NCBI GenBank assembly: GCA_963759825.1 | Contig: CAVXAS010000007.1 | Location: 71,421-103,420, forward strand | Direction: 5' to 3' | DNA length: 32,000 nucleotides | Source: Paraconexibacteraceae bacterium | Lineage (GTDB): Bacteria > Actinomycetota > Thermoleophilia > Solirubrobacterales > Solirubrobacteraceae | In this document: piece by piece, positions 1-32,000 of the stretch | Position numbering within the stretch: position 1 is the first letter of the stretch | Layout of the letters: every line of letters starts with the position of its first letter | Notes under the pieces: model-generated | The model's input: only the letters and a program-made list of their open reading frames with translations | Database searches by the model: none | What the model was told of the DNA's origin: nothing | Translations under genes and position numbers: made by a program

Positions 1-2664
<2,664 letters not shown>

Positions 2665-4763
2665 CTCCGTCGCCACTCGCGGATACCTGCTCTCGGCGTT
2701 GGTGCGCCGCCCGGCGGCGGTCGGCGTGATGCAGGGAGCCTTCTCGGGGGTCGGCGCGCTGGCGCTCAGCCCCGACGACAGGGTCCTCGCCGCGGGAGGC
2801 TTCAACGGGACGGTCGTGCTGTTCGACACGCGCACGCGCAGGCGCATCGGCCGGCCCCTGCAGCTCGTCCGGGGCGTCGGGGGCCTTGACTTCTCGTCCG
2901 ACGGCAGGTTGCTCGCGCTGGCGGGTCCGGTGGGCGAGGAGCCGGACAGTCAGCGCGTGATGCTCGTCGATATCGCCACCAGGAAGGTGGTCCGCGAGAT
3001 CGACCCCGGGCCGTATCCCGCCGGTCCCAAGGTGTTCCCGGTCGTCGATGTCCGCTTCGACGCCCGAAGCCGGGCCCTGGTCGTGATGCTCATGGGGGAT
3101 GGGTCCAGGACGGGGTCCTACCCGCCCTACCTGCGCCGCTATGACGTGCGCACCGGCCGGCCGCTGGGGCGTGCCGTCCCGATCGGCCGGCGGCTCGCTG
3201 GTGTGGCCCTGACGGTTCCCGCCCGGCGCGACCGCCTGCTCGTCTCCGGGGCCGACGAGACGTTCGTTGTCGATGCCGCAACCCTTCGCGTGCGGCGGCG
3301 GTTCCCGGTGGGAGGGTCGACCAACGGGCTCTCGCCCGACGGGCGCAGCGCCGCTCTCGGCCATGAGGACGGCAGCGTCGTCGTTCTCGATCTGCGGACC
3401 GGCAAGCTGCGGACCCTCGCCGGCCGGCACGAGGACCGGGTTCAGGGAGTGGAGTTCACCCCCGACGGTCGCACCCTCGCGAGCAGGGGAGACGACGGCC
3501 GCATCCTGATCTGGAACCTGAGGTCCGGCACGGTGCGCGAGACGCTGACCGGCCACGCCGGCCCCATCACCCGCCTGCTTGTCGGCGACGACGGGCGCAC
3601 GCTCTACACCGGCGGGGTGGACAACCGGATCATCGACTGGGACATCGCCGGGGATCGCCGCCTCGCACACTCCTTCCAGGGGGGCCCGATCCAGTCATCG
3701 GGGACGACCGATTACCCGCCCCCGCTCGCGATCAGCCCGTCCGGCCGGACCGTCGCCGCCGGGCGCGAGGACGGTGGCGTGCGCCTGCACGGTGCTCGCA
3801 CGCTGCTTCGCCTGCGCGAGTTGCCGGGCATCGAGAAGGGGCCGGTGCTCGCGGTCGAGTTCCACCCTGACGGTCGCACGATCGCCGTGACGGGCGAGGG
3901 CGGCGGGGTGGAGATGCGCGATGTTGCCACCGGCCGGCGCGTGCGGGCACCGCTGGCCGGCCTCGGCACCGGGGCGCAGGCGCTGGCGTTCTCGCCCGGC
4001 GGCGGTCTCCTCGCCGTGGCGGATTTGGACGGCAACCTGCGGGTGATGGAGCTGGCGACCGGCGACGTCCGTCGGGTGCCGCGGCTGGCCGGCATTCCGA
4101 TCCACGTGTCGTTCAGTCCCGACGGCAAGCTGCTGGCGCTCGGGCTCGCTGATCGCGGCACCGAGCTGCGCGACAGCCGCTCGCTGCGGATCGTCGCCCG
4201 CCTGCGCGGTGGGCCCGGCGACACAGCTCGCTGGGTTCGCTTCTCCCCGGACGGGCGCGTGCTGGCCGTCAGCGCCATCGAGGGATACACGCAACTGTGG
4301 GACGTCGTGACGCGCCGGCGCATCGGCACACCCCTGGCGGGTCACGAGTTCGACGTGCTCAACGCCGAGTTCTCGCCGGACGGGCGTGTGCTCGCCTCCA
4401 GTGGAGTCGACGGCACCGTGATCCTCTGGGACGTCGCGTCGCGTCGCGCGCTCGGAACGCTCCCCGGACCCTTCGGCCGGGCGTCGGCCCGCTTCACACC
4501 TGACGGCCGCCAGCTCTTCGTGCTGCGCGATTCGGGCGCGGCGCAGCGTTGGGAGGTGAGCCCGGAGGCCTGGTCGCGACACGCCTGTCGCGTGGCGGCT
4601 CGCGCGCTGACGCGCGCGGAGTGGGCCGAGTTCGTGCCGGATCAGCCCTTCCGCCCGATCTGCGGCGCCTAGCCTGGGCGCAAGCTCGGCCTTCCCCACC
4701 GGTAACGACATCGGCCCCGAGCGGCCCATACCGCGATGCCGGCCGCCGGCGCAGGATGACGGC

Positions 4764-15363: not shown

Positions 15364-15520
15364 CGGTGCCGGAGCGCAGCGCGCGTCTCGTCAGGGTGGG
15401 TCCCGAGTCGATACCCCAGTCCGGGGAACCCGGCCGCGACGACTGCTGTCGCGGCGCTCATGGCGCCGAGCCGACGCCGTCCGCTGACGGACGTTTCACC
15501 CGCGATAATGCCTCGCGGCC

Positions 15521-18304: not shown

Positions 18305-18566
18305 CGACGAAGAGGAGGTCGGCGTTCGCGCTTTGCACGATCGGTTGAGCGAGCACCTCGATCGCGTCGAGCAGGGCGTCGAGATCGTCGTGACGCGTCG
18401 CGGCAAGAGGGTTGCGCGCCTGTCGGCGATCGACCGCGACGAGGCGCTGGCAGAGCTCGTGCGACGCGGTCTCGTGCGCCTGCCCGAACGACCACGCTCG
18501 CGTCGCCGCGCGACAGTGGCTGCCAGAGGGTCTGTGTCTGATCTGGTGGCGGAGCAGCGGCGCTGA
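18282..18566 (+). CDS. vapB: Phd/YefM-type antitoxin
   Basis: VGVRALHDRLSEHLDRVEQGVEIVVTRRGKRVARL. It is a paralog of 11073-11342; both end in ...E(D/Q)RR. An alternative start is ATG 18291. Confidence 0.8.
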   Translation: MRLMTLHRDEEEVGVRALHDRLSEHLDRVEQGVEIVVTRRGKRVARLSAIDRDEALAELVRRGLVRLPERPRSRRRATVAARGSVSDLVAEQRR

Positions 18567-18982
18567 GGCTGTACTTCGACACCTCGGCGCTGATCAAGCT
18601 GATCGTCGTCGAGGACGGCTCGGATCTCGCGACCGAGCTGTGGAGCAGCTACCCGGCGTCCTCCAGCGTCCTTGCCTACCCGGAGTCGCGCGCGGCGCTG
18701 GCCGCGGCGCGGCGGGCAAAGCGCTTGACCGCCCGCGCCCACAACCGCGCGGTGGCGGAGCTCGATGCGCTCAATGCCGAGCTCGTGATCATCGGCGTCG
18801 ACGACCTCCTGGCCCACCGCGCCGGCGCGCTCGCGGACACGCACGCGCTGCGCGGGTACGACGCGCTGCATCTCGCAAGCGCTCTCGCGCTCGGTCCAGG
18901 GGAGACGATCCTCGTCACCTGGGACCGCGCTCTCAGCGACGCCGCCGTCGAGGCCGGCCTCGCGGTCGCGCCGGCCATTTGA
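18563..18982 (+). CDS. vapC: PIN-domain toxin (VapC-like) with no canonical start codon upstream of the catalytic Asp
   Basis: The frame opens at 18542 after a TGA and reads LRLYFDTSALIKLIVV...THALRGYDALHLASAL. The first ATG/GTG/TTG in frame is TTG 18725, which would delete the N-terminal half of the PIN domain. CTG 18563-18565 overlaps the antitoxin stop (CTGA). Confidence 0.8.
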   Translation: MRLYFDTSALIKLIVVEDGSDLATELWSSYPASSSVLAYPESRAALAAARRAKRLTARAHNRAVAELDALNAELVIIGVDDLLAHRAGALADTHALRGYDALHLASALALGPGETILVTWDRALSDAAVEAGLAVAPAI

Positions 18983-19009
18983 CGCCAAACCGGGAAACCA
19001 CGGTTTCCG

Positions 19010-20509
19010 ATGTGGGACAGTTGCGGCATGCAGCGAGCGAGCGGGGCGGGACCGCGGGTCGCCGTCATCGGCGCGGGCGTGTCGGGAATGGCGATGGGCC
19101 TTCGCCTGCTGAAGGCCGGGCGGGCGTTCGCGATCTTCGAGAAGGGCCCCGAGGTCGGCGGCACGTGGCGCGACAACCGCTACCCGGGACTGACGATCGA
19201 CGTGCCGTCGCCGCTGTACACGTTCGCCGGCCACCGCCACCCCGGCTGGCGGCGCTGGATGCCCGACCACCACGAGATCCTCGAGTACCACGCCGGCGTG
19301 GCGACACGGACCGGCCTGCGCGAGCACATCCGCTTCGACAGCGAGGTCATCGCCGCGACCTGGACGGGTGTGGCATGGGACGTCGAGACCGTCCGCGGGG
19401 ACCGCGAGACGTTCGACGTCCTCGTCTGCGCGTCGGGGTTCCTGCACCATCCGCGGATCCCGGACATCGAGGGGCTCGGGGCCTTCGCCGGTGAGCTCGT
19501 GCACTCGGCGCGCTGGCGCGACGAGATCGTCACCCGCGGGCAGCGCGTCGGCGTCGTCGGCAACGGCTCGACCGGGATCCAGCTGGTGTCCGCCCTCGCC
19601 GGCGTCGCGTCGCACGTGACGATGTTCCAGCGCACGCCGCAGTGGGTCTTCCCGTTGCCGAACTTCGACATCCCCGGCGTCGTTCGTGGCGCACTCGGGC
19701 TGCTGCCGAGGTCCAGCGACGTCCTCGTCGAGGGGATGGTCCGCTTCGCCGACTGGTTCGTCGGCGGCGCCTCGATCCGCGACGACTGGCGTCGCGCGAT
19801 CGCGCTACGCGTGGCGCGCCAGCACCTCGGCAGCGTCGCCGACCCCGAGCTGCGGGCGAAGCTGACGCCCCCTGACACGGTGCTGTGCAAGCGGCCCGTC
19901 GTCTCGTCGCAGTTCTACAAAGTCGTCCAGCGCGACGACGTGGCCGTGGTGACCGACCCGATCGAGCGCGTCGTCGCGGAGGGCGTCGTGACGGGCGACG
20001 GGACGACACACGCGCTCGACGTCATGGTCCTCGCCACCGGCTTCGAGGCGCACAACTACATGCGGCCGATCGCGATCCGCGGGGAGGACGGCCTCACGCT
20101 CGACGCGGCCTGGGCCAGCGGGCCGCACGGCTATCGCACCGTGTCGCTGACCGGCTTCCCCAACCTGTTCATGCTGATGGGGCCGCACAGCCCGCTGAAC
20201 ACGATCGCGATCCACGAGAGCGCCGAGCTGCAGAGCGACTACGTCATGCAGATGCTCGACGTGATCGGCCGCGGTGACGTCGTGTGTCTCCAGCCGACCG
20301 CCGCCGCGACCGAGCGCTGGCTCGACTACATCCGCGCGGGCGTGCCCGGAACGGTGTGGGCGAGCGGATGCAACAGCTGGTACCTGATGGACGGCGACAC
20401 GCCTGTGCTGTGGCCCTACGATCGCCGGGCCTGGCACGACACGCTGCGCCGCCCGGACCTCGCCGACTACGAGGTCCGCCGCGTCGAGGTTCAGGGCGTC
20501 TCGCAGTAG
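19010..20509 (+). CDS. Flavin-dependent monooxygenase, Baeyer-Villiger/FMO type
   Basis: FAD GxGxxG motif GAGVSG (19070-19087), then GGTWRDNRYPG. The fingerprint FAGELVHSARW fits FxGxxxHxxxW. A second dinucleotide motif is GNGSTG. An alternative start is ATG 19028. Confidence 0.85.
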   Translation: MWDSCGMQRASGAGPRVAVIGAGVSGMAMGLRLLKAGRAFAIFEKGPEVGGTWRDNRYPGLTIDVPSPLYTFAGHRHPGWRRWMPDHHEILEYHAGVATRTGLREHIRFDSEVIAATWTGVAWDVETVRGDRETFDVLVCASGFLHHPRIPDIEGLGAFAGELVHSARWRDEIVTRGQRVGVVGNGSTGIQLVSALAGVASHVTMFQRTPQWVFPLPNFDIPGVVRGALGLLPRSSDVLVEGMVRFADWFVGGASIRDDWRRAIALRVARQHLGSVADPELRAKLTPPDTVLCKRPVVSSQFYKVVQRDDVAVVTDPIERVVAEGVVTGDGTTHALDVMVLATGFEAHNYMRPIAIRGEDGLTLDAAWASGPHGYRTVSLTGFPNLFMLMGPHSPLNTIAIHESAELQSDYVMQMLDVIGRGDVVCLQPTAAATERWLDYIRAGVPGTVWASGCNSWYLMDGDTPVLWPYDRRAWHDTLRRPDLADYEVRRVEVQGVSQ

Positions 20510-23263
20510 CTAGGCGCTCTGCGCCACGGTCTCGCGCTGCGCCTCGCCCGGGAGCGGGAACCAGCGCATCCGCTCATAGGAGTCGGGCAGCACGGGGTCC
20601 TCGATCGGCGCCTCGTGCGCCAGCTGGGCCGGAAGCGACGCCACCAGCCGGCGCGCCGCCTCGAGCTGCTCGGCGAGAACCTGCTCGGGCGCCGTGGCGC
20701 GCTGGGCGTGGAACTCCATCGCCCCGCTCGCATACGACACGTCGTAGAGGCTGACCGGGGGACGGCTGCGCGCGTCGCGGTGGTGCCACAGGCCGGTGAA
20801 CGGATCGAAGCGGTACAGCGTCAGCAGCTTGGCGCCGTCGCGGGCGATGAGGTGGACGGCGTCGATCACGTAGTCGACGACCGCCGGGCTGACGAAGTAG
20901 TTGAAGTTCATCCGGAACCAGCCGAGCTTCGCGCCCTCATGGCCGGCCATCACCTCGCACAGCATCGCGTCGACGCTGTCGTCGTCGATCCCGCTCAGAC
21001 GTTGCATGTACGGCCCGGCGCAGAAGCAGCCGCCGCGCGCCTGGATCCCGAACAGGTCGTTGAGCACCGACACGACGAAGTGCGGATGCAGCATCCCGCG
21101 CGCGTGGCGCACGCCGAGCGAGACGATCGACAGGCGGGGGAGATCGGTGCTTCCGAGGATCTCGATGTTCGGGTCACGCGACCACGAGGCGATCGCCCGG
21201 CGGACGTGCGCCTCCTCGCGCTGTTCGATCGCGCGCGCGCCGACGGCGCTCTTGAGCTGGAACACCAGGCCGCAGCGGATCGACTCGACGATCGCGGGAG
21301 TGCCGGCCTCCTCGCGGTGCTCGTGCTCGTCGAGATAGCGCTGGGAGTCGGTGGTCACGAACGCGACCGTCCCGCCACCGGGAACTGTGGGCACCGGGCT
21401 GTCGAGCAGCGCGCGCTTGACGACGAGGACGCCGGGGGTTCCCGGTCCGCCGATGAACTTGTGCGGGGAGAGGAAGACCGCGTCCTTGAAGGCCAGGTGC
21501 CCGTCGGCGCCGTCGACGGCGGGGTTCATCTCGATCTCCAGATACGGCCCCGCCGCGGCGTAGTCCCAGAAGGACAGCGCGTCGTGACGGTGCAGCAGCG
21601 TGGCCACGGCGTCGACGTCGGTGATGATCCCGGTGACGTTCGACGCAGCCGAGAAGCTGCCGATCTTCAGCGACCGGTCGGCGTGCGCCTCGAGCTCGGC
21701 GCGCAGGTGGTCCTGATCCAGCCGCCCTTGGGCGTCCTCCCTGATGACGCGCACGTCGGCGATCGACTCGCGCCACATCAGCTCGTTGGAGTGGTGCTCG
21801 TAAGGCCCGATGAAGACGACCGGCCGCTCGTGCGCGGGGATCGCCGCCGACAGCCCGTAGCGCGCGTCGAGGCGCTCGGGGATGCGCAGGCCCAGCGCGC
21901 GCACGAGCTTGTCGATCGCCGCCGTCGCACCCGACCCGCAGAACAGCACGACGTCCTCGTCACAGCCGCCGACGGCCTCGTGGACGATTCGCCGCGCATC
22001 GTCGCGCAGGCGCATCGTCTGGCGCCCGGTCGCCGACGACTCGGTGTGGGTGTTGGCATACAGCGGGAGGACCTCGCGCTGGATGAAGTCCTCGATGAAG
22101 CTCAACGAGCGGCCGGAGGCGGTGTAGTCGGCGTAGACGATGCGCTTGGGACCGAACGGGCCCGGCAGCACGAGGTCGTCACCGATCACCGAACGCCCGA
22201 CGAGCTCGACCAGCGCGTCGCGTTCGCGCTCTCCCGGCTCGAGCTGGGAGGCCGGAGCGAGCAGGTCCGGTGACTCGACGGCGTCCTCGGCGGTGTTCGC
22301 AGCGCCCCTGGCGAGGAGCCGGGCGCGCGCGCCGTCGACCCGGTGCTGGGCCTCGATGAGGTTCGCGACCACCGCATCGAGGACGTCGAGGTGCAGCGGC
22401 GAGCGGCTGTCGGAGAGCTCGTCGAGCGTGTCGGCGCTCAGCTCGAGCAGGACGGCGTCGCCGAGCGCGCAGCAGGTCGCGCTGCGGGTCCCGCGGTCGA
22501 CCAGCGCGAGCTCGCCGAACGCCTTGCCGGGCCCGAGCGTGCCGAGACGGTGGTGGCGCCCCTCGCGCGCGACCGCGACCTCGATCATCCCGGCGGCGAC
22601 CACGAGCAGCGAATCGGCGCCCTCCCCCGCGGCGAACACGACCTCGCCGTCGCTCACGGCACGCTCGGACATGCGCTCGAGCAGGCGCTCGAGGTCCTTG
22701 TCGGCGACACGTTCGAAGAAGGTGCAGCGGCGCAGGACCTGCAGTCGCGCGCGGTCCGCGGGCCGTCGCCGCGCCGGCGCGCGCCGCTCGGCGGGGGCGC
22801 CGCCGGCGTCGGCGGCGTCGCCGACGGCGTCGGTGCTGCTGCGCACACGCGCGCAGAGCTCGCGCGCCAGTCGTGCAAGCACCTTGTGCGCGAGCGGGCG
22901 GCCGAGCTTGCGCATGACGCGGAAGTCCGCGGTGTCCAATGCAAAGCCGGATACCGGCTCGAGTGCGATCACCGTCGCGGTGTGGCGGCTCGATCCGTTG
23001 AGCGCCGCCTCGCCGAGGATCGCCCCAGGTCCGCTCACCGTCAGCGGAACGACCGCACCGTGTCTCGTCGCGTGCACCGCAAGGCGTCCCTCCGTCGGCA
23101 GGAACAGGCGGTCGGCGGACGCGCCCTGCCGGAAGAGGATGTCCCGCGCCGCGAGCTCGAACGGGCGCAGCATCCCGGCCAGCTCCGTGCGCTCGGCCTC
23201 GTCGAGATCGGCGAACAGGGACGCGCCGGCGACCGCCTCCGGCGCCCAGTGATGCGCGCTCAT
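20510..23263 (-). CDS. Fusion protein: two cNMP-binding domains plus a class V aminotransferase/cysteine-desulfurase-fold PLP domain (917 aa)
   Basis: ATG 23263 overlaps the upstream stop (ATGA). CNB1 spans aa ~15-125 (GEAALNGSSRHTATV). CNB2 spans aa ~175-285, with the canonical phosphate-binding cassette FGELALVDRGTRSAT (22475-22519). The PLP domain starts at about aa 370: YADYTASGRSLSFIE, YANTHTESSATG, and the PLP lysine in SPHKF (codon 21458-21460). The ORF extension 23264-23569 is Arg-rich junk. Confidence 0.85.
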   Translation of the reverse strand: MSAHHWAPEAVAGASLFADLDEAERTELAGMLRPFELAARDILFRQGASADRLFLPTEGRLAVHATRHGAVVPLTVSGPGAILGEAALNGSSRHTATVIALEPVSGFALDTADFRVMRKLGRPLAHKVLARLARELCARVRSSTDAVGDAADAGGAPAERRAPARRRPADRARLQVLRRCTFFERVADKDLERLLERMSERAVSDGEVVFAAGEGADSLLVVAAGMIEVAVAREGRHHRLGTLGPGKAFGELALVDRGTRSATCCALGDAVLLELSADTLDELSDSRSPLHLDVLDAVVANLIEAQHRVDGARARLLARGAANTAEDAVESPDLLAPASQLEPGERERDALVELVGRSVIGDDLVLPGPFGPKRIVYADYTASGRSLSFIEDFIQREVLPLYANTHTESSATGRQTMRLRDDARRIVHEAVGGCDEDVVLFCGSGATAAIDKLVRALGLRIPERLDARYGLSAAIPAHERPVVFIGPYEHHSNELMWRESIADVRVIREDAQGRLDQDHLRAELEAHADRSLKIGSFSAASNVTGIITDVDAVATLLHRHDALSFWDYAAAGPYLEIEMNPAVDGADGHLAFKDAVFLSPHKFIGGPGTPGVLVVKRALLDSPVPTVPGGGTVAFVTTDSQRYLDEHEHREEAGTPAIVESIRCGLVFQLKSAVGARAIEQREEAHVRRAIASWSRDPNIEILGSTDLPRLSIVSLGVRHARGMLHPHFVVSVLNDLFGIQARGGCFCAGPYMQRLSGIDDDSVDAMLCEVMAGHEGAKLGWFRMNFNYFVSPAVVDYVIDAVHLIARDGAKLLTLYRFDPFTGLWHHRDARSRPPVSLYDVSYASGAMEFHAQRATAPEQVLAEQLEAARRLVASLPAQLAHEAPIEDPVLPDSYERMRWFPLPGEAQRETVAQSA

Positions 23264-24270
23264 GCCGGCGCCCCCGCGGCCATGCGCGACCGCGCTCGCT
23301 CGGCAATGTCGAGGCTCCTGATGAGGTCGGCCTCGATCGCCGCTGCGAACGCGCGCGAGCGCGCGCCGGGCGAGCGCAGCAGCCGCGCGAAATCGTCGCG
23401 GTCGATCGCCAGGATCAGTGACCGCTCGCGCGCCACCGACGACACCGGCGCGGGCTCGCCGTCCAGCAGGCCGACGTACCCGAAGGCGCGGCCCGGGCCG
23501 GCGAAGCCGACGCGCGGATCGCCCCGGCGCGGGACGTCCTCGACGGCGCCATTGAGGGTGACGTAGCACGCCTGCGGCTGCGTCCCCACGTGCTGGACAA
23601 CATGCCCGCGCGGGACGCAGAGCAGCCGCCCGCGGGCGAGCAGGTCGGCGACGAGCTCAAGCTCGAGCTGCTCGAACATCGCCAGGCGCGACAGGTAGGA
23701 GATCGGCGGCACCGCCGCCACCGGCTCTGATCGCGGCCTCTCGGTGGGGCCGGCGCGGCGCGGCTCGATCGCGTCCACCGTTGCCGCGAACTCGGCCAGC
23801 CTGCGGCGCAGGCGCGCGCACGCGATCGCGACGATGCGCCGCCGCAGCTCCAGTGCGCTCTGCTGGCCCGACGCCGTGCGCGCCTCGAATTCCGGCCGGC
23901 TCAAGAACAGCAGCGAGCACGGCCCGAGCGCTCGCACCGTCGCCGTGCGAGTACCGCCGCCCAGCAGCGGCAGCTCGCCGAGCACTTCGCCGGCCCCGAG
24001 TCGCGCGAGCTCCAGCTCGCGCTCCCCCGGGAGCCGCCGGCACACATGGACGATGCCCTCGAGCAGGACGTACAGGCCATCGGACGGCGTCGTCTGCCGC
24101 CACAGGATCTCGCCCGCGTCCAGCTCGATGCGCTTGAAGGCCGACGCGAAGTCGGCCAGGTCGTCGTCGCTGAGACCGTGGAAGAGCGGGATGGCGGCGA
24201 GCAGCCCGGCGGGACCCGTGGCTCGCCGTCGGCGTGCGACGGCGATGTCGGCGACGGCGAAGTCAGACAT
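23260..24270 (-). CDS. Stand-alone tandem cNMP-binding domain protein (336 aa, no HTH)
   Basis: Domain 1 reads IPLFHGLSDDDLADFA...GEVLGELPLLGGGTRTATVRAL, an intact PBC. Domain 2 reads LAMFEQLELELVADLL...GRAFGYVGLLDGEPAPVSSVA, a PBC lacking the Glu and Arg. No DNA-binding or enzymatic domain is visible. Confidence 0.85.
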   Translation of the reverse strand: MSDFAVADIAVARRRRATGPAGLLAAIPLFHGLSDDDLADFASAFKRIELDAGEILWRQTTPSDGLYVLLEGIVHVCRRLPGERELELARLGAGEVLGELPLLGGGTRTATVRALGPCSLLFLSRPEFEARTASGQQSALELRRRIVAIACARLRRRLAEFAATVDAIEPRRAGPTERPRSEPVAAVPPISYLSRLAMFEQLELELVADLLARGRLLCVPRGHVVQHVGTQPQACYVTLNGAVEDVPRRGDPRVGFAGPGRAFGYVGLLDGEPAPVSSVARERSLILAIDRDDFARLLRSPGARSRAFAAAIEADLIRSLDIAERARSRMAAGAPA

Positions 24271-25186
24271 CGAGGTCGACCGTCTCCAGAGACAGCCCGT
24301 CGGCGTCGCGGGTGACGCTCAGAAGCGAGTACTCAGGGACCTCGAGCCACGTCGCGGTGTCGGCGGTCAGCGGCTCGGAGGCGATCATCAGCGACTGCGG
24401 CCGGTCGTCGCTGGCGAGCATCTGCCAGCCGTCCTCGTGGTCGACGTATGACCGGCCTGCCGTGTACCAGAGGCTGACGTAGGGAAGGTCGAGCTCGAGC
24501 ATCGGATCGTCGCTCGGATACCAGCCGTAGTCCATGGCGAAGCGCGTGGCCACGAGGCAGCGGCTGGTCGCCAGGAAGAGGTTCAGCGGTGAGCAGGTGT
24601 CGATGCCGTGGCGGGCGCGCGCGTCGCGCAGGATCTGCAGCACGGCGATCGTTGCCTCGACGAGGTCGGCCGCCGCGGGCTCTGCGGCCCGGTCGCCGAG
24701 CTGCGCCAGCAGCAGCGCGTAGATCCACTCCGAGTCCGTGGTCCCGCTGATGTGCCGGCTCACGGACTTGGGCAGGTGCTCGACCAGGTCGTAGCGCATC
24801 GCGTGGAAGTCGCGCAGGTGGCCGTTGTGGGCCATCACGAAGCCGGCGCCGGGGAACGCGAACGGATGCAGGTTGAGCTCGGAGACGACGTCGTCCGAGG
24901 CCCAGGTGACGCCGCGGACGTGCGCGAGCAGGCACGTCGGGGCGAGCTTGCGGCTCATGCTCTGCAGGTTGCGGTCGTAGTTGGGCAGCGCCGTTACGCG
25001 GTAGGTGAAGGGCTCGTCCCCGTGGACGGACCGGTCATCCCAGGCCGCGAGGCCGAAGCCCGCGAGGTTCAGGAACGAGTCCATCATCCGCGGGCGGTAG
25101 CACTGGTGCACGAGCGAGCTGTCGGTCTCGTAGAGGATGCCTTCGAGCGAGACGGGCTCACCGAGATATCCGAGGACGCGGCACAT
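24263..25186 (-). CDS. Class II (Ntn) glutamine amidotransferase-fold amidohydrolase, EgtC/YafJ-like
   Basis: The protein starts Met-Cys (MCRVLGYLGEPVSL; Cys codon 25181-25183), the hallmark N-terminal nucleophile. A GGAG SD lies about 11 nt upstream. It overlaps the next gene by 8 nt. Confidence 0.85.
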   Translation of the reverse strand: MCRVLGYLGEPVSLEGILYETDSSLVHQCYRPRMMDSFLNLAGFGLAAWDDRSVHGDEPFTYRVTALPNYDRNLQSMSRKLAPTCLLAHVRGVTWASDDVVSELNLHPFAFPGAGFVMAHNGHLRDFHAMRYDLVEHLPKSVSRHISGTTDSEWIYALLLAQLGDRAAEPAAADLVEATIAVLQILRDARARHGIDTCSPLNLFLATSRCLVATRFAMDYGWYPSDDPMLELDLPYVSLWYTAGRSYVDHEDGWQMLASDDRPQSLMIASEPLTADTATWLEVPEYSLLSVTRDADGLSLETVDLDV

Positions 25187-25201
25187 GGTCTTACAGCTCC
25201 G

Positions 25202-25732
25202 CTAGCCGTCGCTCGGCCGTGCCGGCAGCTGGCACACGCCGCCGGCGCAGACCATGTCGGGGTCGTTGCTCTTCCATCCACGCTGCACGAGCCGGCGGTG
25301 CAGCTCGCAGCCCAGGCAGAGGCCGAGGGCGGTCTCCATCCACATCAGCGTCAGGCAGATCGCGCACAGCGTGGCCGGCAGGGCGCCGCGGATGCCGCTG
25401 TTGGTGATGATCGTCATCGCGAACGCCATCCCGAGCCCGAGGTGCCAGGCGAACATCTTGGGCTCGGCGGAGACCCAGTCGGGCGGGTAGCGGCGCGTCA
25501 GCCGGTGAGCGGCGACGCCGACAGGGCTACGGCGGATGCCGAACCTCGTCCTGACCAGGAACTCGACGAAGAAGAACGACGCCGCGGCCTGAAGCGGCAG
25601 GTATGCCTGGTCGAAGAACGCCAGGCAGAACCCGACGGCGCCGATCACCAGGGTTATCCCGGCTGCTGCACGCACGGCGTGCTCGTTGACGACGTCGTCG
25701 GCGGGCTCGATCGGGGTGACGACGGTGGACAT
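25202..25732 (-). CDS. Multi-pass membrane protein, DUF4395-like, with C-terminal Cys motifs
   Basis: About four hydrophobic helices. C-terminal CAICLTLMWMETALGLCLGCELH and CAGGVCQ. The family call is from memory of the conserved CxGC. ATG 25732 is preferred over TTG 25759, which lies inside the intergenic repeats. Confidence 0.65.
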   Translation of the reverse strand: MSTVVTPIEPADDVVNEHAVRAAAGITLVIGAVGFCLAFFDQAYLPLQAAASFFFVEFLVRTRFGIRRSPVGVAAHRLTRRYPPDWVSAEPKMFAWHLGLGMAFAMTIITNSGIRGALPATLCAICLTLMWMETALGLCLGCELHRRLVQRGWKSNDPDMVCAGGVCQLPARPSDG

Positions 25733-25755
25733 GTGCGCATGTCTACTCGCGCGAT

Positions 25756-25784
25756 GCAACCCGATCGCAACCCGAACGCAAGCG
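25756..25784. promoter_or_regulatory. Three direct heptads with exact 11-bp phasing (GCAACCC GATC GCAACCC GAAC GCAAGCG), candidate SARP box
   Basis: The heptads start at 25756, 25767 and 25778, in the divergent spacer between the cNMP/PLP operon and the SARP-family regulator gene. Confidence 0.5.
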
Positions 25785-25818
25785 CTTGGAACGCGCCTAC
25801 CGTGGGTACTCTTGCCCG

Positions 25819-27819
25819 GTGAGCGCGCAGGGGCTGGGGATCCGGCTGCTCGGGAGGCTGTCGATCGACCGCGAAGGCGACACGGCCCCGGCCGGGTTCT
25901 CCGGCCGGCGGTCCGAGCTCGTCTTCGCCTACCTCGTCACCGAGCACCGTCGCGACGTCAGCCGCGACGAGCTGGCGGACGCGCTCTGGCCGCAGGAGCT
26001 GCCAGACGCCTGGTCAGCCGCCCTGCGCAGCGTCGTCAGCGACGTTCGCCGGGTGATCGGCGCCACCGGCCTGGACCCAGGAGAGCTGCTGGAGCACACC
26101 GGCGGCGGCTACCGCCTGCAGCTGCCGTCCGATGCGGTGGTGGACGTGGAGGAGGCGCGCTCCGCGCTCGCGGCTGCGCGAGCGACCGTCGAGGAGGATC
26201 CCGCGGGTGCAGCCGCCCACGCAACGCGCGCGGCTGAGCTCGCGCGGTTGCCGTTCCTGCCGCGCCACGAGGGCGACTGGGTCGACGGGGTGCGCCGCGG
26301 GCTCGCCGAGATCCTGGTGGAGGCGCTCGAGGTGTCAGCGGGCGCACACGCCCGCGCTGGTGACGCACGCGCTGCCGCCGCCGCGGCGGCGCGGCTCGTC
26401 GAGGCCGAGCCCTACAGCGACGCGGCGCACCGCCTGCAGATCGAGGTCCTAGGGACCGTCGGCGATCGCGCCGGCGCGCTGCGCGCGTTCGAGCAGTGCC
26501 GCACGACGTTCGCCGAGGAGCTGGGCGTCGAACCGTCCGCCCAGACGCGGGCCGCGCTGCAGCGCGCGCTCGACGCGACCACAGGCGTCCGCGCGCCGGA
26601 CACACCGGCGGCGCGGACCACCTCCCCGTTCGCCGCCCTGTCGGTGCTGGTCGTCGAAGACCACGACTTCCAGCGCCGCACGGCGGTCACGCTGCTGGAC
26701 CGGCTCGGCGTCGGCTCGCTCGCCGAAGCGCCGGATGGCGCCGCCGCACTCGAGCTGCTCGGCAGCTCGGCGCCGCCTGACGTGATCGTCTGCGACGTCG
26801 ACATGCCGGGAATGGACGGCGTCGAGTTCATCCGGCACGTCGCCGAACGCGGGCTTGCGAGCGCGGTCGTGATCGCGAGCGGGCTCGATCGCAGCGTGTT
26901 GCAGGCGGTCGAGGCGGTCGGCGAGGGGTATGGGCTCCAGGTCCTCGGGGCAGTCGAGAAGCCGTTGACCACGCGCCGGCTGTCGGAGCTGCTGGCCTCC
27001 TACCGGCGACCTCCGCCGCCACACGATCGCGCCGATCACGTCGCAGTGACCGACGCCGAGCTGCGTGCCGCGCTCGATGACGACCGGATCGGCGCGCATT
27101 TCGTCCCGATCGTCGACCTTCAGGCCGATGCCTTCAGTGGTGCGGAGGCCGTCGCCACGTTGCAGAAGGAAGCGGGCGGGCCGGTGAGCCTCGTCAGCGC
27201 GCGGATCGGCACCGACCTGGCTGCGCGCCTCACGGATCACGTGCTCGGCCTGGCGTGTGACCAGTTCGGCGAGCTCACCGCCGCGGGCACGGAAGCCGAG
27301 TTGTGGATCTCGATCGCCGAGCGCACGCTTGCCGACGTGGACGGCGTCGACCGTCTGCTCGCCGTCGTTCGTGACCGCGGCGCCGATCCGCGCCGGATCG
27401 TCCTGATGGTCGGCGAGCGCGCGGTGCGCCACAGTACGGCGGCGGAGCTCGACGTGCTGACGCGGCTGCGCGTGAAGGGCTTTGGCATCTGCCTCGACGA
27501 CGTCGGCGGGGGGCATGCAAGCGACGACGCTCGCGCGCGCATCCCGCTCACCGCGGTGGCACTGGCGCCGGCGCTGGTCCACGGAGCGGCGCGCGAGCCG
27601 GCCGCTGCGTCGGAGCTCGAGGACGCGATCGAATCGATCCGGGCGCACGCGCTCCAGACGCTGGCGCGCGGCTGCGACGACCCCTCCGACTACGAGCTGC
27701 TGCTTCAGGCGGGCTGCAGCCACGCGCAGGGCGAGGTCATCGCCGGGGCGCTGCCGGCCGGTGAGCTCGCCGTGTGGGCGCGCGACTGGCGGTCGCCCGC
27801 GATCCCGGGAACGCGGTGA
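25819..27819 (+). CDS. SARP-type (OmpR-like wHTH + BTAD) regulator fused to a receiver domain and a degenerate EAL domain
   Basis: wHTH: IRLLGRLSIDREG...SRDELADALWPQELPDAWSAALRSVVSDVRRVIG...GYRLQL. BTAD: ...AEPYSDAAHRLQIEVLGTVGDRAGALRAFEQCRTTFAEELGVEPS. REC: LVVEDHD, CDVDMPGMDG (Asp 26794-26796), IASG, EKPL. EAL-like: FVPIVDL, EAV (27145-27153), DDVGGG (27496-27513), AQGE. GTG 25819 is preferred; TTG 25786 is possible. Confidence 0.85.
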   Translation: MSAQGLGIRLLGRLSIDREGDTAPAGFSGRRSELVFAYLVTEHRRDVSRDELADALWPQELPDAWSAALRSVVSDVRRVIGATGLDPGELLEHTGGGYRLQLPSDAVVDVEEARSALAAARATVEEDPAGAAAHATRAAELARLPFLPRHEGDWVDGVRRGLAEILVEALEVSAGAHARAGDARAAAAAAARLVEAEPYSDAAHRLQIEVLGTVGDRAGALRAFEQCRTTFAEELGVEPSAQTRAALQRALDATTGVRAPDTPAARTTSPFAALSVLVVEDHDFQRRTAVTLLDRLGVGSLAEAPDGAAALELLGSSAPPDVIVCDVDMPGMDGVEFIRHVAERGLASAVVIASGLDRSVLQAVEAVGEGYGLQVLGAVEKPLTTRRLSELLASYRRPPPPHDRADHVAVTDAELRAALDDDRIGAHFVPIVDLQADAFSGAEAVATLQKEAGGPVSLVSARIGTDLAARLTDHVLGLACDQFGELTAAGTEAELWISIAERTLADVDGVDRLLAVVRDRGADPRRIVLMVGERAVRHSTAAELDVLTRLRVKGFGICLDDVGGGHASDDARARIPLTAVALAPALVHGAAREPAAASELEDAIESIRAHALQTLARGCDDPSDYELLLQAGCSHAQGEVIAGALPAGELAVWARDWRSPAIPGTR

Positions 27820-30347
27820 GCGCCGGCTCACATCGCCCGACGCTGTCGCTGCGGCGGCTGCTCGGGGTCCTGCTCGCGATCCTCGGGGCCCTCGTCGCCG
27901 CGCTGATCGTCGTCACCACGCTGCAGCTGCGCGGGTCCCAGTCGCAGGCCGATGCGGAGAACCGGCGCAGCGCGTCGTACCTGCTCGCCGACAGCATGCG
28001 CCGCAGCTCGAACGACCTGACGAACATGGTGCGGCTGTATGTCGCGACCGGCGAGCGTCGCTATCGCGACTACTACGCGGAGATCCTCGCCATCCGCAGC
28101 GGCACCGCCCGGCGCCCGCGCCACTACGACAGCTCCTTCTGGGACCGGGTCCTCGCCGAGGGCAAGGGCTTCGTCCGCTACGGGCCGCGCGAATCGCTCG
28201 TCGCCCAGATGCGCAAGGCCAACTTCACGCCCGCCGAGTTCCGCGCCCTCAACACGTCGCTCACCGCCTCCAACGGCCTCGCCAAGGTCGAGCTCGAGGT
28301 CATGGATCGCGTCGAGCAGCGCATCCGCCGCGGTCTCGACGACGCATACCTCGGCGACGTGGAGCGCGAGTATCGCCGGCTCGTCGACGCGGCCTACCTC
28401 GCCGACAAGGGCGTGATCATGGGCGCGATCGCCCGTTTCATCGACCTCGTCGACACCCGCACCCGGCGCGACGTCGAGGACGAGCGCGCGTCCAACGACA
28501 CGCTCTTCGCCATCCAGATCGCGATTCTCGTCGTGATCCTGCTCGTCGGCGTCGGCGCGATGGCGGTCATCTCGCGAGTCGCGGTCCGGCCACTCAGCAG
28601 GCTTGCGGAGGCGACGCGACGCATCGCCAGCGGCGACTACGAGGAGCGCGCCGACGTCCACGGCGTCGCCGAGCTCGAGCAGGTCGCCGGCGCGTTCAAC
28701 GAGATGGCCGCGTCGATCCAGTCCGACATCGCGCGGCGCGAGCGGGCTGAGCACGATGCGACCGCCGCGCGCATGGCTGCCGAGGAGGCCAGCCGCGCCA
28801 AGTCGGCCTTCCTGGCCGCGATGAGCCACGAGATCCGCACCCCGATGATGGGCGTGACCGGCATGCTCGAGGTCCTCAACCGGACCCAGTTGTCACCGGC
28901 GCAGCGCCACATGGTCGCCACGGCCGACCGGTCGGCGCAGTCGCTGCTGCACATCATCGGTGACGTCCTGGACTTCTCGAAGATCGAGGCCTCCAAGCTG
29001 CAGCTCGCCCCGGCGACCTTCGACCTGCGAGCGGTGGTCAACGCGGCGGCCGAGACCTTCCGCCACACCGCGTCGGCCAAGGGGCTGCTGCTCACCAGCA
29101 GCGTCGAGGACGGGCTCGCGCCGGCGCACGTCGGTGACGCGCTGCGCCTGCGCCAGATCTTCACGAACTTCCTGTCGAACGCGGTCAAGTTCACCGCGGT
29201 CGGCGGCATCGAGATCGAGGCACGCGTCCTCGACACCTCCGACGAGCTGCAAGTGCTCGACATCTCGGTCACGGACACCGGCATCGGTGTCGCCCCCGCG
29301 CAGCAGCGCGAGCTGTTCACCGACTACACCCAGGCCGACGCGACGACCTCAGGGCGCTTCGGCGGGACCGGCCTCGGACTGGCGATCTGCCGGCGCCTGG
29401 CAGCGCTGATGGGCGGCGAGATCACGATGCAGAGCGCCCTTGCCCGGGGGACGACGATGCGCCTGACCGTGCCGCTGCCGATCGGCGATCCGGCGGACAT
29501 CGCCGCGCCCGTCGCGCCGGTCGCAGATCTTTATGCCCCCACGCGCCCGAAGCCCAGTCGCGAGCAGGCCCTGCGCGAGGGAAGCCTGCTGCTGATCGCC
29601 GAGGATCACGAGGTCAACCGCACCGTCCTGCGCCACCAGCTCGACATCATCGGCTTCGAGGCAGATTTCGCCGACGACGGCGAGCAGGCGCTCGCCCGCT
29701 ACCTCGAGGACCGTTACGCGCTCGTGCTGACCGACCTGAACATGCCCGGCCTCGACGGCTACGACCTCGCGCGCGCGATCCGCCGCCACGAGCATGAGTC
29801 GGGCGCCGTGCGAGTCCCGATCATCGCGCTCACGGCGAACGTCATGCAGGGCGTGCCGGAGCGCTCCCGCGAGGCCGGGATGGACGACTTCGCAACCAAG
29901 CCGACCACGATTCCGTTCCTCGCCGGCAAGCTGCGCCAATGGCTGCCGCAGCTCGACTGGGCGGACGAGCCAGACGTGCGGCCCGGACGGGACGGGGACG
30001 GTGTCGCGAACGCCGATGCGCTCGATCTTGCGGTGCTCGCAGAGGTCACCGGCGCCGACTCGGCGCTCGCCGCCTCGCTGATCAACGACTTCCTGACCAG
30101 CTCGCGCGCGGACCTGCAGATGCTCGAGGACGCGCTCGCCGCCGGCGAGCTCGACGACGCGCGCCGTCGCGCGCACCGCATCAAGGGCGCGGCGCGGATC
30201 GTCGGAGCGAACGCCGTCGCGACGCTGGCCCAGCAGATCGAGACCGGCGCGGCGTCGGGCGGCGACGTGCCGCAGTTGGCCACGCTGACCACGCGCCTGC
30301 ACGCCGCGCTCGCAGACTGCCAGGCGGCGACGGCCTTGGTGACCTAA
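27816..30347 (+). CDS. Hybrid sensor histidine kinase: TM, extracytoplasmic helical sensor, TM, HAMP, HisKA, HATPase_c, REC, HPt
   Basis: GTG 27816 overlaps the upstream TGA (GTGA). Two TM helices flank a sensor region of about 190 aa. HAMP: RPLSRLAEATRRIASGDYEE. H-box: FLAAMSHEIRTP (His 28827-28829). G-boxes: TDTGIGV and GGTGLGLAI. REC: LIAEDHEVNR...LTDLNMPGLDG (Asp 29733-29735). HPt: AHRIKGAARIVGA (His 30174-30176). Confidence 0.9.
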   Translation: MSAGSHRPTLSLRRLLGVLLAILGALVAALIVVTTLQLRGSQSQADAENRRSASYLLADSMRRSSNDLTNMVRLYVATGERRYRDYYAEILAIRSGTARRPRHYDSSFWDRVLAEGKGFVRYGPRESLVAQMRKANFTPAEFRALNTSLTASNGLAKVELEVMDRVEQRIRRGLDDAYLGDVEREYRRLVDAAYLADKGVIMGAIARFIDLVDTRTRRDVEDERASNDTLFAIQIAILVVILLVGVGAMAVISRVAVRPLSRLAEATRRIASGDYEERADVHGVAELEQVAGAFNEMAASIQSDIARRERAEHDATAARMAAEEASRAKSAFLAAMSHEIRTPMMGVTGMLEVLNRTQLSPAQRHMVATADRSAQSLLHIIGDVLDFSKIEASKLQLAPATFDLRAVVNAAAETFRHTASAKGLLLTSSVEDGLAPAHVGDALRLRQIFTNFLSNAVKFTAVGGIEIEARVLDTSDELQVLDISVTDTGIGVAPAQQRELFTDYTQADATTSGRFGGTGLGLAICRRLAALMGGEITMQSALARGTTMRLTVPLPIGDPADIAAPVAPVADLYAPTRPKPSREQALREGSLLLIAEDHEVNRTVLRHQLDIIGFEADFADDGEQALARYLEDRYALVLTDLNMPGLDGYDLARAIRRHEHESGAVRVPIIALTANVMQGVPERSREAGMDDFATKPTTIPFLAGKLRQWLPQLDWADEPDVRPGRDGDGVANADALDLAVLAEVTGADSALAASLINDFLTSSRADLQMLEDALAAGELDDARRRAHRIKGAARIVGANAVATLAQQIETGAASGGDVPQLATLTTRLHAALADCQAATALVT

Positions 30348-31077
30348 CGAGCGACGGCGCTACCTCGGCCAGTCGGGCGGCGATCGGGATCGCGACGGTC
30401 GCGAACAGCCCGAACGCGCCCGCCACCCGCAACGGAAGGAACCCGGCCGCGACGGCGATCGCCATGCAGGTGAGCGCAAACGCCGTGACCCACACGATCG
30501 GATGCGTCTGGTGCGGAAAGCGAAACCTGCCGAGCATCAACGCCGACACGGCGAGCAGCCCGGCGATCGTGAGCGCCGGCGCCAGCTCGAGCCCGAGGAC
30601 GGCGAGCACCGCGAGCCCCCCAACCGGGGACGTGACGCCGGTGAAGCCGTCCGCGGGGGCATGCGGCGCCGCCGCATGACGCGCCAGGCGCACGACGACC
30701 GCGACGACGTGCGTCGTCGCCGCGGCCAGGAAGACCGCGCCGGTGAGCGAGGAGTGTCCGAGGCCGGCCACCGCAATCAGCAGCGCCGGAGCGACACCGA
30801 AGGCGATCGCGTCCGACATGCCGTCGAAATGGTCGCCGAGGCCGCTGCTCCACGTGTAGCGGGCGACGATCCCGTCGGCCACGTCGCACAATGCGCCGAG
30901 CCCGATCAGCGCCATCGCCAGCTTCAGCTCGTACACCTGGATCCCGTCGGTGAGCTCAGCAGGGTTGGCGGCCCAGTACCGCACGAGGATCGCGATCGCG
31001 AGAAACCCGAGAGCGGCGCTGGCGAGCGTCACCAGGTCGGCGGGGCTGAGGCGGCCGCTCGGCCGTCGGCTGTTCAT
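30181..31077 (-). CDS. pssA: CDP-alcohol phosphatidyltransferase, phosphatidylserine synthase-like
   Basis: DGIVARYTWSSGLGDHFDGMSDAI matches D-G-x2-A-R-x8-G-x3-D-x3-D. Multi-pass membrane profile. The start overlaps the psd stop. The last ~55 codons are Arg/Pro-rich and antisense to the kinase gene. Confidence 0.85.
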   Translation of the reverse strand: MNSRRPSGRLSPADLVTLASAALGFLAIAILVRYWAANPAELTDGIQVYELKLAMALIGLGALCDVADGIVARYTWSSGLGDHFDGMSDAIAFGVAPALLIAVAGLGHSSLTGAVFLAAATTHVVAVVVRLARHAAAPHAPADGFTGVTSPVGGLAVLAVLGLELAPALTIAGLLAVSALMLGRFRFPHQTHPIVWVTAFALTCMAIAVAAGFLPLRVAGAFGLFATVAIPIAARLAEVAPSLVRSPRPSPPGSLRARRAGAWSAWPTAARRRPTPRRSRSAGPASRRRSLRRSAPRP

Positions 31078-31727
31078 CTCGCAAGCCTCGATTCGCCGGC
31101 ACGCAGTCGGTCGCCGACGGCGACCGCGGGCGCACTGCCAGGTGGAAGGACGACGTCGACACGCGAGCCGAAGCGGATCAGGCCGATCCGCTCACCGCGC
31201 CGGATGCGCTCGTCGACGGTGCGGTAGGGGACGATCCGCCGGGCAAGGGCACCTGCGATCTGGACGATCTCCAGCTCGCCCTGTGCGGTGTCGACCGTCC
31301 AGCGGAGGCGCTCGTTGCGTTCGGAGTCCTTGTCGAACGCCGGAATGTGCCCCCCGGGCCGGTACTCGACGCTGCGCACGACGCCATCGGCCGGCGCCCT
31401 GTTGACGTGGACGTCGCGCAGGCTCAGGTAGGTGGCGATCCGCCAGCGGCCGTCCTTGCGCCGGTCGACTGCGATGACGCGGCCGTCCGCCGCCGCGAGC
31501 AGCCCCGGCGACCGCGGCGTGCGCTCAGGGTCGCGGAAGAACGCGGCAGTCAACGCGCCGACGACCGCTGCCGCGAGGCCCGCCGGCCGTGCCTCACGGC
31601 TCCTGCAGGTCGCGACGGCCGTCAGCCCGAGGCCCCACCAGCACGCCCACAGCCATTTCGGCACGCCCCGCGCGATTCGATGCCTCCCCGAGAGATCCAC
31701 GGTGGCGATCGTCACGCCCGGGCGCAA
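31074..31727 (-). CDS. psd: Phosphatidylserine decarboxylase (short, archaeal/actinobacterial type proenzyme)
   Basis: FFRDPERTP, RDVHVNRAPADG and the self-cleavage-type motif IRFGSRVDV, with the pssA gene adjacent. The start is TTG 31727 or GTG 31715. Confidence 0.85.
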   Translation of the reverse strand: MRPGVTIATVDLSGRHRIARGVPKWLWACWWGLGLTAVATCRSREARPAGLAAAVVGALTAAFFRDPERTPRSPGLLAAADGRVIAVDRRKDGRWRIATYLSLRDVHVNRAPADGVVRSVEYRPGGHIPAFDKDSERNERLRWTVDTAQGELEIVQIAGALARRIVPYRTVDERIRRGERIGLIRFGSRVDVVLPPGSAPAVAVGDRLRAGESRLAR

Positions 31728-31826
31728 CCCGAACGCAATCGCGTGCCGAGGCCGCCCGTGGCGCGGGGCGCGTGCGGTTGCGCCCCGCTTGCGCGTGCGT
31801 TGCGGGCCGCCGCGTAGAAGTGGCGC

Positions 31827-32000
31827 ATGGCCGTCGCCGAACTCGCCTCAACGACGCTTCCCAGCGCGTCGTCGGCCGGTGCCCCGGTTGGCGAGTCGAT
31901 CGCTCAGCCGAGGGCCGTGGTCGCAGCGACGGCGCGGGTGCCCGCGCGCACGGTCGGCCTGATCGCGTCGATGGGCGTCTTCATGGCGTTCTTCGACAAC
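31827..32000 (+). CDS. MFS transporter (DHA2-like), 5' portion only
   Basis: The ATG at 31827 opens a frame that runs to the window end: MAVAELASTT...RTVGLIASMGVFMAFFDN, a typical first TM of EmrB/QacA-type MFS proteins. Only 58 codons are visible. Confidence 0.5.
   Translation, partial: MAVAELASTTLPSASSAGAPVGESIAQPRAVVAATARVPARTVGLIASMGVFMAFFDN

Follow-up and report, generated by a model that had tools for sequence, protein, structure and literature searches.

A SARP-type regulator with a receiver and a degenerate EAL domain, encoded beside a hybrid histidine kinase in Solirubrobacterales, as a candidate phosphorelay-switched activator

The REC-EAL regulators RocR and PvrR of Pseudomonas aeruginosa, in which a receiver (REC) is joined to an EAL domain, act with the partners RocS1 and PvrS. 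Activators of the SARP family form a second point of reference: the characterized members are of the small, NB-ARC, NB-ARC plus TPR, LAL, or FHA types, and the classical geometry of their sites is three direct repeats at 11-bp spacing beside a -10 element without a -35 element (PMC10972967). Here, we analyzed 32,000 nucleotides from a Paraconexibacteraceae bacterium (GCA_963759825.1, contig CAVXAS010000007.1, positions 71,421 to 103,420 of the forward strand; G+C content of 70 to 75%), a stretch referred to below as the window. In the window, a gene on the plus strand encodes a regulator in which a SARP module, made up of a winged helix-turn-helix (wHTH) and a BTAD domain, is followed by a receiver and an EAL-like domain, and its 3' end overlaps the gene for a hybrid histidine kinase. 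The work followed up a first reading of the letters made without database searches (the original prediction), which had singled out this regulator for its architecture. The model that we favor, though with only somewhat more confidence than doubt, is that the protein is a SARP activator that acts as the response regulator at the end of a His-Asp-His-Asp phosphorelay, with its EAL domain retained as a pseudoenzyme scaffold.

The open reading frame (ORF) of the regulator runs from either TTG 25786 or GTG 25819 to 27819. The database gene call for an identical protein (P0001) is 666 amino acids (aa) long and starts at GTG 25819, and the -10-like hexamer 6 nt before this codon (Table 1) has equivalents of the form xAxxxT (GATCCT, GATGCT, and GATAGT) at matching distance from the start in homologous loci. 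The GTG start is preferred because of this gene call and the conserved hexamer, on which TTG 25786 was rejected. Residue numbers below refer to the 666-aa protein, and Pfam coordinates are given in 677-aa numbering. As read from these motifs, the regulator mRNA may be leaderless. Apparent leaderless genes, with a hexamer 6 to 7 nt before the start and no room for a Shine-Dalgarno sequence, were seen at 25732, 25819, and 31827 in the window and in loci L004, L006, L009, and L015.

The order wHTH, BTAD, REC, and EAL given in the original prediction was recovered with Pfam, all four domains exceeding their gathering scores: Trans_reg_C at 46 to 111 (26.8 bits; cutoff, 26.2), BTAD (PF03704) directly after it at 119 to 259 (65 bits; cutoff, 22), Response_reg (PF00072) at 287 to 402 (68 bits), and EAL (PF00563) at 424 to 653 (109 bits). 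A sequence search of the PDB matched EmbR to residues 17 to 265 (E = 2e-18) and RocR (3sy8) to residues 285 to 658 (E = 1e-37), and AfsR also matched the SARP part. An AlphaFold2 model built from 119 homologues had a mean predicted local distance difference test score (pLDDT) of 90.7, the linker between BTAD and REC (residues 258 to 266) being the sole disordered stretch. Foldseek searches with this model returned the SARP domain of AfsR (8k60_J; template modeling [TM] score of 0.85), EmbR, and RocR (E = 1e-23). The best NCBIfam match of the regulator was PvrR, and since the score of 174.6 bits lies far under the cutoff of 580, the protein is not a PvrR equivalog. Invariant residues of the wHTH are W57, P62, W65, R70, and R77. 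The receiver, which had been called intact by eye with its acceptor Asp at 26794 to 26796, does carry the full set of E280/D281, acceptor D326 (at that codon), S354, and K381, and these are near-invariant among the 119 homologues (D326 in 118, S or T at position 354 in 118, and K381 in all 119).

The kinase gene overlaps the 3' end of the regulator gene by 46 nt, and its translation contains the H-box SHEIRTP, the receiver Asp in TDLNMPG, and the Hpt His in AHRIKGAA. A kinase homologue (50 to 73% identity) lies directly downstream of the regulator in about 28 of 30 SARP-type loci, so that the neighboring kinase mentioned in the original prediction proved to be a syntenic hybrid kinase with its own Hpt domain. 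Kinase homologues (41 to 49% identity) also follow many stand-alone REC-EAL genes, and the pairing of regulator and kinase is on this ground older than the SARP fusion. We take the layout to parallel those of RocS1-RocR and PvrS-PvrR. Across the loci compared, no third gene was constant beside the pair. The conserved receiver residues and the synteny make it very likely that the receiver is functional, with this kinase as its phosphate donor.

Residues of the EAL domain were mapped by aligning the query to RocR, and the register was checked in the columns in which QERNEEDDKEQ is read in 99 of 147 representatives, all of them free of a SARP fusion. In RocR numbering, the replacements are Q161V, R179T, N233S, E265M, K316A, D318A, and E352R, and the positions kept are E175, E268, D295, D296, and Q372. 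The Mg-site and catalytic residues are E175, N233, E265, E268, D295, K316, and E352, and a site is intact only if all seven are retained (PMC2952852); the query keeps three of them (E175, E268, and D295). It keeps one of the four residues for recognition of c-di-GMP (Q161, R179, D296, and D318; Seshasayee et al., PMC2952852), with V, T, D, and A at these positions. The claim of a catalytically degenerate EAL domain was thus borne out by profile and RocR alignment. Its by-eye motif register also held at all positions, including the retained DD and QG, save that the catalytic Asn aligns to the Ser of WISIA (codon 27310 to 27312) and not to the Ala; the loss of the Asn stands. Given these replacements, the domain is almost certainly catalytically dead.

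Other roles for such a domain have to be weighed against that of a scaffold, and the 119 full-length homologues bear on each. An active phosphodiesterase with a non-canonical residue set has next to no probability and was rejected on the residue mapping: E175, E268, and D295/D296 do remain, but N233, E265, K316, and the general base E352 have become S, M, A, and R where all seven residues are needed (PMC2952852), and the domain scores 109 bits against 207 to 245 bits for six intact relatives scanned with the same Pfam profile. The catalytic-site replacements also vary between homologues, none of which keeps all seven residues (two sequences reach the highest number, six); N233 is still present in 2 of the 119. 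No SARP-fused member with an intact EAL site was found among these homologues, the related genome loci, or the representatives at 50% identity. The original prediction had itself likened the domain to the c-di-GMP receptors FimX and LapD more than to active enzymes, so that the regulator might combine phosphorylation with, possibly, the c-di-GMP level. It is true that the EAL fold is intact (TM scores of 0.85 to 0.91 to solved EAL domains, TBD1265 and FimX 4f3h/4f48 among them), that E175, D295, D296, and the QG motif are retained, and that a receptor-like pattern occurs in the Acidimicrobiia branch, in whose members the DD of DDFG has become (S/R)H but Q/E, E, R, N, E, K, and Q are still there. 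Against this stand the loss of Q161, R179, and D318 and the Arg at the E352 position, which is equated by motif with FimX E653. All four recognition residues occur together in none of the 119 homologues, and in 72 at most one is left. Moreover, conservation in the pocket columns is significantly below that of the remaining EAL domain even among the 20 closest relatives (at least 62% identity), in which pairwise identity is 0.74 for the SARP part, 0.82 for REC, 0.60 for EAL, and 0.41 for the 11 pocket positions; only 0.7% of random sets of 11 EAL columns are as low. The corresponding values for all 119 homologues are 0.60, 0.69, 0.41, and 0.26, and the closest homologue (L001; 69% identity) differs from the query at 7 of the 11 pocket positions. 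The FimX/LapD analogy is unsupported for this protein because the conservation pattern fits a retained scaffold and not a conserved ligand pocket, and we regard a c-di-GMP receptor as quite improbable. For the clade as a whole, the pocket data make it fairly likely that there is no conserved c-di-GMP sensing; only the deeper Acidimicrobiia branch, where a homologue has the signature Q-E-R-N-E-D-R/S-H-K-D-Q, has a pattern that could be compatible with c-di-GMP binding without hydrolysis.

A fold that is conserved around a pocket that is not would also suit a domain that acts in trans, as in YdiV and BluF, by docking a partner regulator, RNA polymerase, or the kinase, so that this contact and not self-assembly gates activity. 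Degenerate EAL domains without c-di-GMP binding that work by protein contacts are established, BluF antagonizing BluR (PMC3509220), and the regulator family has its own conserved C-terminal helix with W657. However, no conserved third gene accompanies the regulator-kinase pair across loci, and the conserved EAL residues are mostly those of generic fold-core motifs and not of a distinct surface patch: P430 (the P of YQP), W448 (the W after the EAL motif), LTRLRVKGFG (the L..LR..G helix-strand), P576 (the P of LPxD), G618 (the G of EGVE), and G638 (the G of QG). We consider docking in trans unlikely and return to the scaffold as the preferred role of the EAL domain. A role in oligomerization is plausible because RocR (3sy8), which we take to be a tetramer held by its EAL and REC domains, assembles in this way.

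Stand-alone relatives place the decay within one clade. In 44 loci of Proteobacteria, Holophagaceae, and Acidobacteria with a stand-alone REC-EAL gene (33 to 40% identity), every scorable protein reads QERNEEDDKEQ. On the sequences compared, the decay is specific to an actinobacterial clade of REC-EAL modules, within which every SARP-fused protein examined falls. Degenerate members of the same clade without a SARP module are a Ser/Thr-kinase fusion (P0135) and the stand-alone proteins L064/P0156, P0137, and P0139. The REC-EAL cassette was also seen behind other N-terminal modules. A Ser/Thr protein kinase precedes it in P0135, whose degenerate cassette is 47% identical to that of the query, and in P0191, where the EAL domain is intact; REC-Hpt is fused N-terminally to the cassette in relatives such as P0155, again with an intact EAL domain. 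Distant matches of about 680 aa, considered as divergent SARP fusions with an intact EAL domain, were rejected, being REC-Hpt-REC-EAL or Ser/Thr-kinase-REC-EAL proteins.

The regulator gene and a divergent DUF4395 gene (probable ATG 25732) are separated by 86 bp, and a scan of this intergenic region found no sigma-70 -35/-10 pair. It contains three direct 11-bp repeats (Table 1) whose core, GCAA-N7-GCAA-N7-GCAA, occurs twice without mismatch in the window versus 0.05 expected, the second time at 31778 to 31803. When at most one mismatch in the triple GCAA was allowed, the 33 SARP-type loci (431 kb) yielded 26 hits, 15 of them with CTAC 9 to 10 nt before the first repeat, compared to 0.6 hits and none with CTAC in the same loci after shuffling, and 3 hits and none with CTAC in 45 non-SARP REC-EAL loci (484 kb). 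The hexamer TTCTAC precedes nearly all hits and is conserved 9 to 10 nt from the first repeat in at least 15 sites; in the reverse reading, the order is TTGC-N7-TTGC-N7-TTGC, 9 to 10 nt, GTAGAA(C), and then a gene. The element adjoins the regulator gene in L001 to L008, L010, L015, L023, and L026, where its distance to the regulator's own -10-like hexamer differs between loci. From their geometry and co-localization, the repeats are likely the operator of the regulator. In the Actinomycetota metagenome-assembled genomes (MAGs) behind L029 (11816) and L067 (1123, 1164, and 11858), where the regulators have an EAL signature of the Acidimicrobiia type, three copies of GCAAGGACGNC are followed 9 nt later by TAAGAG(T), the same core with apparently reversed polarity relative to the hexamer.

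The genes that the element faces point to possible targets. The DUF4395 gene stands in the same divergent arrangement in L001 and L015. The gene starting at ATG 31827 (plus strand), 6 nt after GTAGAAG, continues past the end of the window, and its 58 visible residues gave no Pfam match; at the second L001 site, the counterpart gene encodes a 574-aa hydrophobic protein. Downstream genes in other loci vary and include DUF4395, small proteins, large proteins, and one protein with a possible cyclic nucleotide monophosphate (cNMP)-binding region. The divergent operon (20510 to 25732, minus strand) encodes, in order, DUF4395, an EgtC-like class II glutamine amidotransferase, a protein that carries two cNMP-binding domains, and a fusion of two cNMP-binding domains with a class V aminotransferase. 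Some of these genes are found again close to the regulator-kinase pair in L001, L009, L011, L012, L014, and L015, which suggests a conserved regulon, possibly for thiol or ergothioneine-like metabolism. Convergent with the kinase gene are psd and pssA (30181 to 31727, minus strand), which by Pfam encode a phosphatidylserine decarboxylase and a CDP-alcohol phosphatidyltransferase; because two TTGC repeats face the psd start, phospholipid synthesis may be under this regulator as well. In L009 (10789) and L014 (10761), a triple-repeat box lies between the kinase and EgtC-like genes, with TACGAT and the EgtC-like ATG on one side and a small Cys-containing ORF of 60 aa on the GTAGTG side; judging from this layout, the box may work in both directions.

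Elsewhere in the window are a large regulator of the LAL type (15509 to 18265, plus strand), which has an AAA_16 ATPase domain at its N terminus and a LuxR/GerE HTH at its C terminus, a protein of 879 aa that combines the remnant of an nSTAND1 NTPase with a long WD40 beta-propeller array (2033 to 4672, plus strand), and a PIN-domain protein gene (stop at 18982) abutting an FMO-like flavin monooxygenase gene (start at 18983; the two spanning 18542 to 20509, plus strand).

Table 1. Coordinates of the regulator, its kinase, and candidate control elements in the window
Feature	Position	Strand	Basis or remark
SARP-REC-EAL regulator gene, 666 aa, GTG start, stop included	25819..27819	+	ORF, four Pfam domains, gene call
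-10-like hexamer TACTCT, 6 nt before GTG 25819	25807-25812	+	Equivalent hexamers in homologous loci
OmpR-type winged-helix DNA-binding domain, residues ~6-100	25834..26118	+	Trans_reg_C, EmbR, and AfsR matches
BTAD helical domain, residues ~108-248	26140..26562	+	PF03704; all-helical in model
Receiver (REC) domain	26644..26991	+	PF00072
Degenerate EAL domain	27055..27744	+	PF00563, RocR alignment, Foldseek
Hybrid histidine kinase, transmembrane-sensor-HAMP-HisKA-HATPase-REC-Hpt	27774..30347	+	Pfam; NCBIfam TorS/BarA-like
Candidate SARP operator 1, 11-bp direct repeat in three copies, plus strand GCAACCCGATC GCAACCCGAAC GCAAGCGCTTG	25756..25788	-	TTGC repeats towards divergent DUF4395 operon
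-10-like hexamer, minus strand GTAGACA	25740..25746	-	9 bp from proximal repeat, 7 nt before ATG 25732
DUF4395 membrane protein gene (PF14340), first of divergent operon	25202..25732	-	Probable direct target
Candidate SARP operator 2, TTGC at 31778, 31789, and 31800; GTAGAAG 31814-31820; then ATG 31827	31778..31820	+	
Two more TTGC repeats, 11-bp spacing, towards psd-pssA operon	31724..31738	-	Weak candidate

In the mechanism that we propose, an extracytoplasmic signal would be sensed by the co-transcribed hybrid kinase, and phosphate would pass from the kinase His to the Asp of its own receiver, to the Hpt His, and on to D326 of the regulator. Phosphorylation of the REC-EAL module would change its hold on the N-terminal wHTH-BTAD part, or the oligomerization of that part, which would then occupy the three 11-bp direct repeats (CGCAA-N6) standing in for a -35 element. 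RNA polymerase would thereby be recruited and promoters with a -10-like TAGAAC 9 to 10 bp away activated, the probable targets being the divergent operon for DUF4395, EgtC-like, and cNMP-binding proteins and the gene for a hydrophobic protein at 31827. The EAL domain would derive from a RocR/PvrR-type REC-EAL regulator that was still active and already had this kinase as its partner; after the SARP fusion, the domain would have lost catalysis and conserved c-di-GMP recognition and been kept as a folded scaffold, probably for oligomerization. Several observations weigh against this proposal. The Trans_reg_C score barely exceeds its threshold, and the packing of the domains is uncertain because the predicted TM score (pTM) of the AlphaFold2 model is only 0.59, leaving the inter-domain arrangement uncertain. 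In L009, L011 to L014, and L016 to L022, a box directly upstream of the regulator gene is missing; in the -10-like hexamer, the T that usually comes last is often absent (TAGAAC); and the repeats in the Acidimicrobiia-type loci L029 and L067 apparently face the opposite way. Fast evolution of the pocket, too, could be diversification towards other ligands and not loss of function.

The same four Pfam domains occur in full-length proteins of at least 120 clusters at 90% identity (45 to 85% identity to the query), the named members of which are Solirubrobacteraceae, and a search of 1.84 billion representatives at 50% identity returned about a dozen clusters of full-length relatives. Among contigs sampled at one genome per species, the full-length form was found in MAGs of Solirubrobacterales, Thermoleophilaceae, Patulibacter, Jatrophihabitans, Pseudonocardiales, and Acidimicrobiia (36 to 38% identity). 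The regulator belongs to a sizeable uncharacterized family that is centered on Thermoleophilia, being common among soil bacteria of this class, and widespread in Solirubrobacterales. No description of the wHTH-BTAD-REC-EAL architecture was found in the literature searched (SARP with EAL, receiver, or c-di-GMP; BTAD with receiver). A review of SARPs from 2024 has only the small, NB-ARC, NB-ARC plus TPR, and LAL types in its list (PMC10972967). The architecture that the original prediction called unusual is so when set against the characterized SARP types (PMC10972967), but not in the databases, where a survey of the domain order proved it common. The automatic annotation of the Joint Genome Institute (JGI) reads [quoted passage not shown] Domain shuffling is common among signaling proteins, and for this reason, and because automatic annotation already flags the combination, the surprise is only moderate. 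The label [quoted passage not shown] is almost certainly wrong for these proteins and would inflate phosphodiesterase counts in their genomes.

We give an even chance to the fuller proposal that SARP-REC-pseudoEAL proteins are a previously unrecognized SARP class switched directly by a His-Asp phosphorelay, in which a SARP module captured a kinase-paired REC-EAL regulator of the RocR/PvrR type, the decayed EAL domain serves as an oligomerization scaffold by which several units of wHTH-BTAD are placed on the triple 11-bp boxes of promoters without a -35 element, and the Acidimicrobiia members are possibly c-di-GMP-sensing intermediates. Known SARP gating is by Ser/Thr phosphorylation, ATP/NB-ARC switches, and small ligands, and a phosphorelay SARP, if real, would be a new input mode. 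The repeats would likewise give a defined operator for the poorly studied Thermoleophilia, and the family would provide a staged example of a pseudoenzyme arising after fusion of an output domain, from intact stand-alone relatives through the half-decayed Acidimicrobiia to the fully decayed Solirubrobacterales proteins.

Compared to known systems, the regulator resembles RocR and PvrR in that it can be aligned with RocR over the whole of its 390 C-terminal residues and in that its partner is also a hybrid HisKA-HATPase-REC-Hpt kinase encoded next door; it differs by the added N-terminal SARP DNA-binding module of about 270 residues, by the destroyed EAL active site, and by an output that is presumably transcription and not c-di-GMP hydrolysis. 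With the SARPs ActII-ORF4, DnrI, AfsR, and EmbR it shares the N-terminal wHTH and BTAD, with structural matches to EmbR and AfsR, and a candidate operator of three 11-bp direct repeats beside a -10 without a -35 (PMC10972967). Unlike in those proteins, the C-terminal extension is REC plus a pseudo-EAL domain and not NB-ARC/TPR, LAL, or FHA, the input is predicted to be a His-Asp phosphorelay and not Ser/Thr kinases or ATP, the host is one of the Thermoleophilia and not Streptomyces or Mycobacterium, and the neighborhood is not an antibiotic gene cluster. It has in common with FimX and LapD an EAL fold without catalytic competence. In FimX, however, Q463, R481, and E653 contact the ligand (PMC7288161); their equivalents here, mapped by motif via RocR-equivalent positions and published contact lists, are V, T, and R, the pocket is not conserved in the family, and there is no GGDEF partner domain. 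The likeness to YdiV and BluF lies in a preserved EAL fold that has lost catalysis and, apparently, recognition of c-di-GMP, with a role that is probably structural or in protein contact (PMC3509220 for BluF); this likeness rests on the EAL fold, which here, unlike in YdiV and BluF, is joined in cis to a receiver and to an activator that binds DNA. Finally, the combination of a receiver with an OmpR-type winged helix and predicted direct-repeat binding recalls the OmpR/PhoB family, whereas the order is inverted, with the wHTH first and REC in the middle, and BTAD and EAL-fold domains have been added.

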